From the sequence record PP989838.1: DNA of 64,000 bases, one strand, 5' to 3'. This document shows, piece after piece, positions 17,539 to 19,602 of this stretch; the first letter of the stretch is position 1, and every line of letters starts with the position of its first letter. The notes under the pieces are model-generated. The model saw only the letters and a list, made by a program, of their open reading frames with translations. It did not search any database and was not told the origin of the DNA. The stretch comes from Escherichia phage VTCCBPA_211. The translations under genes and the position numbers were made by a program.

Positions 17539-17568
17539 ATGAAAGGGTTTACCCTTCAGGTGGATTAG
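17539..17568 (+). other. 9-codon leader mini-ORF ending 3 nt before the GATase initiator
   Basis: ATG AAA GGG TTT ACC CTT CAG GTG GAT TAG; its codons contain the SD-like AGGTGGA for the downstream AUU. Confidence 0.3.
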
Positions 17569-17571
17569 AAA

Positions 17572-19602
17572 ATTTGTGGCATCGTATTAGCTGGCGGTAA
17601 TCTGTCAAGCACCGATTTAGACGTATTCAACCAACTCTTTTATGCTGGAGTATTCCGAGGACAACACTCCTCTGGTATCTTTGGTCAGCGTAAAAGTACT
17701 AAGGAAGTCTTCACTTATAAAGAAGCTCTTCCTTCTTTCGCATTCATCCTACAAGATGAGTACAAGAAGCACACCACCGGTGAAACAGCTTACACTGTAG
17801 CACCTTCATGGATTGTTGGTCACAGCCGTCATGCAACGAAAGGTGCAGTTAACGCCAAGAACGCCCATCCTTTCCAACATGGTAACATCACTCTGGTTCA
17901 TAATGGAACCTTGATGGACCAAGATCTGTTACCTGACAGCAAAAACTTCGAGGTAGACAGTGAGAACATCTGCCACTCTATTAACACTATTGGTGCAGCA
18001 GAGACTATTCAAAAGCTGGATGGTGCTTTCACCTTAATCTGGCATGATGCTTCTGATAACCGTCTTCATATCATCCGTAACGAAGAGCGTCCTTTCCATC
18101 TCGCACGTTGTAACAGAGATTGGTTTGGTGCTTCTGAAGAAGATATGTTGATGTGGATTCTGAAGCGTTCTAAGTCCCATAAGAACCGTATTGACGAGCA
18201 TTTTGAATGTAAAATTGGTACAGAATACATCTTTGATATGTCAAACAACAGTATGACTCTGGTTGAAGAGGTCGCCCACGAGCTTCCGGTTTTTACGGTA
18301 GCCAATCGTTGGGGCAATTATTACTCGAACAACTACAGCCAAAGCAACTATCAAAGTTCCTCAAAAAGCAGTACAAGCAATCCTTACGACACGAAGCCGG
18401 GCGTGACAGCGGCAGACGTTCGTCGAAGAAACGCAGTGGTAAGTCAAAACAAAATCGCAAGCGATCGAAACATTGATATTCGCCGCGATATGACTGTGGA
18501 AATCACTCCGCATGAGTTTGTTCCTTATGCAACTGCCGGTGCTGTTCCTTCTCGTGGTAAGATGATTGGTTATATCTACGATGAGAAATCTCAAGAGTAC
18601 ATCGAAGGTGATGTTCATAACGTAGATATTAAGGCTTATCAGGATGCCCTGAAAGACCCTAAAATTGTTTACCGTGGGACAGTATCCTGCATCTCCGAAG
18701 TCAATGCTATGGTCCGTTTAGTGATCACAGCAGGTCGTTTTGTTGACCCATCTCTGGAGAAAAAGGAGCCTGAGTCTACTACTGCTGACTTTGATGATGA
18801 TATCCCTTTTGACATGAATGATAGTTTCGTCAACAAGAATGGCGTTACTATCACTCGTAAATTCTGGGAAGCACACTCTCATGGTGATTGTGGTGGTTGT
18901 GACAAGCACATTGATTGGAAGGATGCACCTAAAGCAGTCTTCGCATATCAGTGCTATTGGCATACTGAATGTCTGGAAGGTTTGACTAAACCTAAAGATG
19001 AAGAAGAGGAGGAAACTCCTATTGGTGTTTGTGAAATCTGCGGTGAAGTTAAAACGGAGAATGAGTTCGATGAAGAACTTAGTCGTCTTCGTGGTGAAGA
19101 TATCTGTAAAGTCTGCGCTGTAGATGTAAAGAAGAAGGTATCTAATGCTACGATCAAAGATGGTTATGTCTGGATTAAAGCAACAGATACAACAAACGCC
19201 CGTCGTCCTGAGTTTGCTTTACGTGTAACTGAAGATATGATTGGTCGTATGACTGTATTACCTTCCTCAGCGAAACAGACAGGCATCACTCTGGAGGATG
19301 TTGTTGATGCTTATGTTGAGAAACGTAGCAACAGTATTTTTGCAATCTCAACTAAGCCAAAAAAGGAGGAACCTGCTGAGAAAGCAGGTGTGTTTCCTGA
19401 ATCACGAACAGCTCTCCGCAAAACTGTTGTCAGCTTCGACGGAAACCGAAGCACTGACTTCACCAAAGCCATGTGGTCAACCCTCGGATACTGCTCAGAG
19501 TGTTTTAAGCAGATTCCGTGGCGCGATGCTGAAAGTTGTACGCTTGGTTCTATGAATCAAGTTTATTGTAATTCTCCTAAATGTTCATTGAATAGAGGTT
19601 AA
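17572..19602 (+). CDS. class-II (Ntn) glutamine amidotransferase domain protein with Cys-rich C-terminal extension; apparent AUU start
   Basis: Frame opens right after TAG 17566-17568; AAA ATT TGT GGC ATC GTA gives (M)CGIVLAGG, the PurF/GlmS/AsnB-type Cys1 signature; HSRHATKGAVNAKNAHPF downstream; no ATG/GTG/TTG can precede Cys. Confidence 0.75.
   Translation: MCGIVLAGGNLSSTDLDVFNQLFYAGVFRGQHSSGIFGQRKSTKEVFTYKEALPSFAFILQDEYKKHTTGETAYTVAPSWIVGHSRHATKGAVNAKNAHPFQHGNITLVHNGTLMDQDLLPDSKNFEVDSENICHSINTIGAAETIQKLDGAFTLIWHDASDNRLHIIRNEERPFHLARCNRDWFGASEEDMLMWILKRSKSHKNRIDEHFECKIGTEYIFDMSNNSMTLVEEVAHELPVFTVANRWGNYYSNNYSQSNYQSSSKSSTSNPYDTKPGVTAADVRRRNAVVSQNKIASDRNIDIRRDMTVEITPHEFVPYATAGAVPSRGKMIGYIYDEKSQEYIEGDVHNVDIKAYQDALKDPKIVYRGTVSCISEVNAMVRLVITAGRFVDPSLEKKEPESTTADFDDDIPFDMNDSFVNKNGVTITRKFWEAHSHGDCGGCDKHIDWKDAPKAVFAYQCYWHTECLEGLTKPKDEEEEETPIGVCEICGEVKTENEFDEELSRLRGEDICKVCAVDVKKKVSNATIKDGYVWIKATDTTNARRPEFALRVTEDMIGRMTVLPSSAKQTGITLEDVVDAYVEKRSNSIFAISTKPKKEEPAEKAGVFPESRTALRKTVVSFDGNRSTDFTKAMWSTLGYCSECFKQIPWRDAESCTLGSMNQVYCNSPKCSLNRG

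Follow-up and report, generated by a model that had tools for sequence, protein, structure and literature searches.

The amidotransferase gene of the 64,000-nucleotide DNA stretch from Escherichia phage VTCCBPA_211 (record PP989838.1; the whole stretch is referred to as the window) is, as the best explanation of the data taken as a whole, very probably translated from an AUU codon at position 17572 by way of a conserved module of a small hairpin, a Shine-Dalgarno sequence (SD) and an AAA triplet, which probably restrains its expression. Bacteria and phages very rarely use AUU or AUC as a start, infC and pcnB being the textbook cases. The window represents a phiEco32-like Kuravirus (Gordonclarkvirinae) in reverse complement relative to the reference, and over 2.4 kb the locus shares 97% identity with phiEco32 and with some 70 similar Escherichia coli and Shigella phages. 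The gene is the orthologue of phiEco32 gene 83 (phi32_83; ABY52884 / YP_001671828; 2031 nt), from which it differs in nothing substantive: the DNA is 97% identical, the leader is identical and the coding sequence (CDS) starts at this same ATT in both GenBank and RefSeq. The annotated starts of the 128 phiEco32 CDS comprise 112 ATG, 13 GTG, 2 TTG and a single ATT, that of gene 83. The ATT start of gene 83 has been in public annotation since 2008 and is, as a fact about a single locus, not new; what appears to be undescribed is the recurrent architecture of hairpin, SD, AAA and AUU or AUC across the gene family. A literature search on ATT/AUU starts in phage amidotransferases returned nothing relevant, the 2008 and 2012 phiEco32 papers and Iyer et al. 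2009 lying outside its reach.

An earlier note on this DNA had read the frame K-I-C-G-I-V directly behind an in-frame TAG and had proposed that initiation at ATT exposes the catalytic Cys as residue 1. The sequence is as described there (Table 1) and the frame is open up to its stop; no ATG, GTG or TTG can precede the Cys codon because the interval between TAG and Cys consists of AAA and ATT only. A mini open reading frame (mini-ORF) of nine codons ending 3 nt before the ATT is present as well, as is the AGGTGGA motif; the gap to the ATT is 7 nt instead of the 8 nt given, which is a difference in counting only. The proposed N-terminus is supported by the protein. Pfam detects a class-II glutamine amidotransferase (GATase) domain only (GATase_6, 1e-14; GATase_7, 3.6e-6), and a comparison of 15 diverse homologues shows C1, G2, R28, G29, H98-P99-F100, N110-G111 and D128 to be invariant. 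The homologue profile, which covers GlmS residues 1–201, matches the E. coli GlmS glutaminase domain (1xff; E = 6e-12) with its position 1 on residue 1, and Cys1, Arg28, Asn110-Gly111 and Asp128 align to Cys1, Arg26, Asn98-Gly99 and Asp123 of GlmS. Judged by its sequence, the gene product is a class-II (N-terminal nucleophile, Ntn) glutamine amidotransferase and orthologous to the phiEco32 gene-83 product, with predicted glutaminase activity. Moreover, in a tblastn search of 327 phage records nearly all matches listed, from close and distant relatives, begin at the Cys.

A survey of the start codon, made independently of gene calls, comprised 137 non-identical homologues from phages and metagenomes, the metagenome part covering 80 of 319 matches (L-numbers are labels of the surveyed homologue loci, L021 being Aeromonas phage BUCT695). 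The codon preceding the Cys is ATG in 102, ATT in 24, ATC in four, TTG in six and GTG in one of these homologues, and nothing else was seen. This argues that codon −1 is the initiation codon family-wide, because only AUG and near-cognates occur at a position where tolerance of a propeptide would give arbitrary codons. No in-frame ATG, GTG or TTG lies between the preceding stop and the Cys in 27 of the 28 ATT/ATC genes, and the ATT/ATC share (28/137) compares with 0/127 among the other phiEco32 genes (Fisher p = 3e-9). The same leader and ATT were found in 98 phage records and in every related locus read, so that a sequencing error can be dismissed; all of the Gordonclarkvirinae-type records (about 98) keep the ATT, as do BUCT695 and the metagenomic locus L029. 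In the window, the ATT occupies the sole position that fits the conserved N-terminus and has an SD at functional spacing (7 nt, −7.0 kcal/mol), as expected for an AUU/AUC gene. Taken together, AUU initiation followed by Met excision is a well-supported reading, in which the actual use of the AUU is what we infer from sequence comparison. What the data show directly is the anatomy of the sequence, how far it is conserved, the start-codon counts for the family and the link of ATT/ATC with the hairpin described below. The start position in this family would be fixed by the need for Cys1, with the hairpin-SD-AAA context accompanying ATT and ATC.

ATG-TGT with an ordinary SD is found in distant relatives, namely Privateer, GAP52, 7-11, Vp_R1, 4_4572, PJNS034 and several IMG/VR contigs, and among six cultured phages sampled beyond Gordonclarkvirinae and BUCT695 no ATT or ATC was seen (ATG or TTG instead). 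The closest cultured relatives of the locus L057 are PA11-like phages, of which TC6 has TTG. An ATG version of the window's start string was not found before any amidotransferase in IMG/VR; three IMG/VR matches to GGATTAGAAAATGTGTGG, considered as natural ATG revertants of the start region, turned out to be unrelated chance matches.

Since the mini-ORF and the main ORF share one frame, translation could also start at ATG 17539, read through the UAG and be followed by autoproteolysis of a 12-residue propeptide to expose Cys1. Some Ntn amidotransferases, such as Bacillus subtilis PurF, are known to lose a propeptide. This PurF-type processing likewise exposes Cys1, but it does so where the start codon is not adjacent and it needs an uninterrupted in-frame extension, whereas the window has an intervening TAG and no homologue is extended: an N-terminal extension was found in 0/137 homologues, codon −1 always being a start or near-cognate, and other ATT/ATC members are without any upstream in-frame ATG. 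A suppressor tRNA or a reassignment of TAG was considered and rejected, the sole tRNA in the window being tRNA-Arg(TCT) and TAG being a normal stop that ends 14 annotated phiEco32 genes. Furthermore, no Rfam recoding or read-through element at the leader rose above noise. The read-through route, which the earlier note had retained as an alternative, is therefore disfavoured and hardly credible.

The public records suggest yet another possibility, namely that the N-terminal part is untranslated and the ATT-Cys a decaying remnant, the product starting at TTG 17911, as annotated in SU10, or at another internal start. Truncated CDSs are present in most database records, among them those of EP335, ECBP2, BUCT695 and SU10, for the last of which a 63.8-kDa protein model was reported, and the annotated CDS covers the true start region in just 7/60 cases among the records listed. 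Gene callers that do not admit ATT as a start are the cause of these truncated models. Codons 1–112 are conserved at the protein level down to homologues of 30–50% identity with the catalytic residues invariant, about 98 genomes keep an open frame behind the TAG, and a product without Cys1 would have no nucleophile, which makes an internal start very improbable. Regarding annotation, this means that a truncated protein without the catalytic Cys1 is annotated in BUCT695 and in the majority of public genomes from this phage group.

The sequence context of the ATT/ATC starts differs from that of the ATG starts in several respects. In the window, a small hairpin (RNAfold −6.1 kcal/mol, z = −2.4) has as its 3′ base the first A of the SD. 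A stable hairpin, i.e., one with a minimum free energy (MFE) of −4 kcal/mol or below, is positioned directly 5′ of the SD in 15/22 ATT/ATC genes and in 7/101 ATG genes (p = 3e-7), and where the intergenic spacer measures 21 nt or more it is found in 14/16 ATT/ATC versus 1/21 ATG genes (Fisher p = 2.7e-7). The hairpin is position-specific, as the structure signal appears only in sequence windows starting at −40 and −30, which are the least structured positions in ATG genes. The SD is stronger in ATT/ATC than in ATG genes (−8.5 versus −7.1 kcal/mol, p = 6.5e-4), and AAA occupies positions −3 to −1 in 11/22 ATT/ATC but only 4/102 ATG genes. A dependence of ATT/ATC starts on tight coupling to the upstream gene was considered and rejected: the stop of the upstream gene falls within −20 to +4 (overlap or coupling) in 6/28 ATT/ATC versus 72/95 ATG genes, i.e., ATT/ATC genes are less coupled.

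Identical SD-spacer-ATT strings precede proteins that are just 36–46% identical, and the hairpin sequences are wholly different between lineages having the identical string. As an example, L051, L057 and L077 have TAGGAGATGAGAAAATT and L109, L161 and L176 have AAAGGTAGGAACCYAAAATT, with proteins only 41–45% identical. Similarly, a metagenomic homologue of 36% identity (L029/L093) has tgaAGGAGGATTAGAAAATT-TGTGG, i.e., the TTAGAAA spacer and ATT of the window behind a stronger SD (AGGAGGA) and no ATG mini-ORF. Conversely, start codon and start region switch together between near-identical proteins: L161 (ATT) and L166 (ATG) are 98% identical, L109 and L102 96.5%, and in the IMG/VR pair L092/L094, whose first 150 residues are identical, an ATT behind ggctttcGGAGGAtaatact is replaced by a TTG behind a different start region. 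ATT/ATC starts are dispersed over the tree, for which a crude neighbour-joining/Fitch reconstruction gives a minimum of about 19 switches. That the ATT of the window is one case of an undescribed recurrent initiation module, which was repeatedly gained, lost and swapped and acts as a translational control device instead of reflecting drift, is proposed tentatively, as a possibility that deserves serious weight while falling short of probable. If it is true, the module might serve an initiation that senses initiation factor 3 (IF3) or the growth state, or might enforce a low rate of initiation so that Cys1 is exposed by the removal of Met. In any case, a family with about 20% ATT/ATC starts offers a natural sequence set on how non-canonical starts work and why they are selected.

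A stop-like triplet often follows directly after the SD in these start regions (GGAGGA-TAG, GGAGA-TGA, GG-TAG-GA, GGAGGA-TAA), as observed in L049, L056, L064, L069, L092, L172, L051, L057, L077, L109, L161 and L176; it is usually out of the gene's frame and ends no long upstream ORF. An alternative hairpin sequestering the SD (GGUUUACC/GGUGGAUU) was rejected, as it is broken by the BUCT695 substitutions. Searches for Rfam families gave best matches of 16–17 bits to the window leader, compared to thresholds of 44–70, and nothing near threshold in 20 other ATT/ATC loci.

The mechanism underlying initiation at this codon is of an already known kind. The SD AGGUGGA, 7 nt upstream, would place the 30S subunit at AUU 17572, the initiator tRNA would read AUU as a near-cognate start, and deformylase and methionine aminopeptidase would strip the formylmethionine, by which Cys would become residue 1 (predicted N-terminus CGIVLAGGNLSSTDLDVFNQLFYAGVFR). 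In the proposed module, the small hairpin borders directly on the SD, which is followed by an A-rich spacer with AAA at its end and then by the AUU; strong SD, AAA and hairpin may act as compensating or positioning elements that hold the ribosome on the site, and we infer a function of the hairpin in this sense. Termination at the mini-ORF stop and reinitiation may add a contribution that is probably secondary. Two out-of-frame codons, TTG (17574) and GTG (17576), overlap the ATT-TGT junction and open ORFs of eight and four codons, respectively; they could compete with the ATT for ribosomes held by the SD.

AUU initiation with a 4–8-fold lower yield and control by IF3 is established for infC and pcnB (PMC3592434; PMC5499595). 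Like the window gene, E. coli infC has an AUU start with an SD and an upstream stop exactly 3 nt before the AUU (UAA GGU AUU compared to UAG AAA AUU; PMC3592434), and in both genes the non-canonical start is phylogenetically conserved (PMC3592434; PMC5499595). The two differ in that the upstream ORF in the window is a putative mini-ORF of nine codons and not a full gene, and in that a hairpin abuts the SD in the window. Unlike for infC, there is no obvious feedback loop for the window gene, because its product is not a translation factor. For E. coli pcnB, encoding poly(A) polymerase I, the inefficient AUU start limits an enzyme whose excess is presumably harmful, according to the work cited in PMC3592434; unlike in pcnB, the trait seen in the window is found repeatedly within one phage gene family, about 20% of whose members have ATT/ATC, together with the hairpin-SD-AAA context. 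As AUU is a weak start that is discriminated against by IF3, a low and possibly IF3- or growth-state-dependent synthesis of the glutaminase is the likely purpose. By analogy to these genes, the AUU most likely restrains or conditions amidotransferase synthesis as a throttle that is possibly IF3-sensitive. The result suggests that the amidotransferase level in the phage amidoligase/ATP-grasp pathway is apparently deliberately restrained.

The position of the mini-ORF would allow a different main route to the same AUU, namely reinitiation, in which the mini-ORF is translated, ribosomes terminate at the UAG and restart at the AUU 3 nt further on, the gene being near-silent otherwise. The mini-ORF is in frame with its stop 3 nt before the AUU, BUCT695 keeps its ATG, TAG and frame, and the invariance of the leader over 56 nt could reflect overlapping constraints from coding and signal. 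The geometry matches UAA-GGU-AUU at thrS-infC, where reinitiation and de novo initiation are about equal (PMC3592434). Against this stands that, of 21 other distinct start regions with ATT/ATC, just one has an ATG mini-ORF whose end falls within −12 to +5, and that L029/L093 have the same GGATTAGAAAATT-TGTGG string and a strong SD without an ATG mini-ORF. In the Kuravirus leader the mini-ORF itself has only AAGG, 8 nt upstream, and the U and G of its ATG are paired in the hairpin base; in BUCT695 no SD precedes it (AAATGTAATATTAG-ATG), and each of the two substitutions alters its peptide. Coupling to the upstream gene is, if anything, looser for ATT/ATC genes than for ATG genes. Reinitiation as the main route is accordingly unlikely. 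The mini-ORF is restricted to the leader type of Gordonclarkvirinae and BUCT695 and is not conserved alongside ATT/ATC starts elsewhere; as a general feature of these starts it was rejected, being missing from 20/21 other start regions. Of the coupling suggested by the earlier note, the geometry stands, while its generality does not, and the BUCT695 mini-ORF has no SD of its own. It is the hairpin beside the SD, a feature that the earlier note had not remarked on, which accompanies ATT/ATC starts repeatedly. Because its stop lies 3 nt before the AUU, as at thrS-infC, the mini-ORF may add some reinitiation to direct initiation at the AUU, and it is lineage-specific, with a probably secondary role.

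Several points weigh against direct AUU initiation through a hairpin-SD-AAA module. Folds of larger leader stretches (45–128 nt) are not more stable than shuffled sequences (z = −0.24 to −1.99), only the small hairpin next to the SD standing out, the family statistics are drawn from sequences that are not phylogenetically independent, and the throttle and IF3 rationale is an analogy to infC and pcnB. The protein was detected by mass spectrometry in SU10-infected cells (PMC4281155); these proteomic data were searched against the truncated 63.8-kDa model, and the detection is for this reason silent on the start site. Finally, the full invariance over 56 nt exceeds what hairpin, SD and start need; the hairpin sequence varies freely in other lineages. 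An extra constraint may act on the leader, whether through an encoded peptide, a protein-binding site or an element at the level of the DNA.

The leader is conserved to an unusual degree, beyond what chance would give. In five phages of three genera it forms a run of 56 invariant nucleotides (17524–17579), compared to 58% invariant columns overall and a next-longest run of 23 nt; conservation drops sharply on both sides, and across the 64-kb window the leader is the fourth-longest exact segment in common with ECBP2 and EP335. The BUCT695 (Grimontviridae) leader is 91% identical over query positions 9–74, its protein just 53%. The two BUCT695 substitutions within the mini-ORF change the hairpin loop from TTTA to TTAA (F to L) and the SD from GGTGG to GGCGG (AGGCGGA; V to A), the TTAGAAA spacer being kept.

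A DNA-level or protein-binding element, which would be compatible with the ATT start, might account for this conservation, the candidates being the remnant of a promoter or operator, the target of a homing endonuclease along with its co-conversion tract, and the operator of a phage translational repressor. The invariance is greater than the hairpin requires, AAGGGTTAACCCTT is a perfect palindrome in BUCT695, and relatives have a AAATGTAA motif resembling the gp36 promoter at the leader position. An HNH-like remnant lies immediately upstream of the leader in BUCT695, UFV-P2 carries an intact HNH gene at the same junction (PMC3890496), and other top-conserved non-coding segments of the window are promoters. 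On the other hand, there is no sigma-70-like promoter on the + strand at the leader, the gp36 motif is degenerate in Kuravirus, palindrome and leader occur nowhere else in the window, and the conservation edges are sharp, unlike those of a recombination tract. Hairpins of unrelated sequence at the same position in other ATT/ATC lineages argue for a role at the RNA level. As the source of the conservation, a DNA-level or protein-binding element is considered improbable. Searches of the + strand from 17490 to 17580 found neither a sigma-70 promoter nor an intrinsic terminator, no repeats of the leader or palindrome that could be a regulon signal exist elsewhere in the window, and TTAAAKGTWAAT is not enriched over chance in the window.

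The gp36 promoter element of phiEco32 is tAATGTAtA (PMC4281155). The motif TTAAATGTAA(A/T) is located about 20–35 nt upstream of the ATG in the Grimontviridae relatives L005, L006, L008, L016 and L017, and in BUCT695 at 3003–3014 of L021. As it resembles the gp36 motif, the amidotransferase gene may head its own phage-sigma transcription unit in those relatives. Positions 2805–3000 of L021 contain unannotated coding remnants resembling an HNH endonuclease and a helix-turn-helix protein between the amidoligase gene and the leader; the amidoligase-amidotransferase junction may be an insertion hot spot for homing endonucleases.

With respect to the remaining protein, the conserved Cys1 right after the initiator Met, Arg, Asn-Gly and Asp are shared with the class-II domains of GlmS, PurF and AsnB. 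Unlike these enzymes, the window protein has no SIS, phosphoribosyltransferase or synthetase domain and instead contains a Cys-rich C-terminal region of about 420 residues (~255–675) with several CxxC-type clusters, to which no Pfam family matched. GlmS identity, as given in many records, finds no support, as the C-terminal tandem SIS domains are missing; Pfam gave no match to SIS isomerase domains in the 675 residues, and the record name 'L-glutamine-D-fructose-6-phosphate aminotransferase' (GlmS) is unjustified for this reason.

Table 1. Sequence features around the amidotransferase start, in window coordinates.
Feature	Position	Strand	Remarks
Stop codon TAA of upstream gene 84 (Amidoligase_2 protein)	17490–17492	+	
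Stem-loop GTGCCTCT-gacaa-AGGGGCAC directly after the gene-84 stop	17500–17520	+	terminator-like but without U-run; present in the MFE fold
Invariant leader block of Kuravirus, Suseptimavirus and Nieuwekanaalvirus	17524–17579		
TTAAAGGTTAAT, degenerate counterpart of the TTAAATGTAA(A/T) motif of relatives	17524–17535	+	by comparison with relatives
Mini-ORF: ATG (17539–41), AAA GGG TTT ACC CTT CAG GTG GAT, TAG (17566–68)	17539–17568	+	9 sense codons (MKGFTLQVD), in the amidotransferase frame
Small hairpin on the 5′ flank of the SD	17540–17558	+	core AAGGG-TTTA-CCCTT at 17543–17556; extended UGAA(A)GGG UUUA CCC UUCA
SD AGGTGGA	17558–17564	+	7-nt gap to ATT; predicted duplex with the 16S 3′ end −7.0 kcal/mol
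In-frame TAG closing the mini-ORF	17566–17568	+	3 nt 5′ of the start codon
AAA codon between TAG and ATT	17569–17571	+	
ATT, putative initiation codon of the amidotransferase gene	17572–17574	+	sole near-cognate between TAG and Cys codon; annotated start of phi32_83
TGT, Cys1 (N-terminal nucleophile)	17575–17577	+	by conservation and GlmS alignment
Amidotransferase CDS, complete	17572–19602	+	676 codons + stop (19600–19602); length as phi32_83

Compensatory changes in ECBP2 (GCGCTCT...AGGGCGC) and EP335 preserve the pairing of the stem-loop behind gene 84, and a GC hairpin is found at the same gene-84 junction in distant relatives. The stem-loop may serve as a terminator, a processing site or a 3′ stabiliser. 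The amidotransferase gene is part of a cluster at 14959–21241, which comprises a COOH-NH2 ligase (14959–15765), an unknown gene, the Amidoligase_2 gene (16389–17492), the amidotransferase, two small ORFs and an ATP-grasp gene (20048–21241). In phiEco32, a gamma-glutamyl cyclotransferase is encoded downstream.

Elsewhere in the window, the other longest exact segments shared with ECBP2 and EP335 are located at 9980–10036, which is non-coding and contains two inverted repeats, and at 60002–60069, 4039–4100 and 30136–30189, which lie in open frames. Two further conserved non-coding segments contain promoter-type sequences, namely 33116–33158 with ATAATGTATAC, a gp36-type promoter motif, and 6177–6220 with TTGACA...TATTAT, which resembles a sigma-70 promoter.

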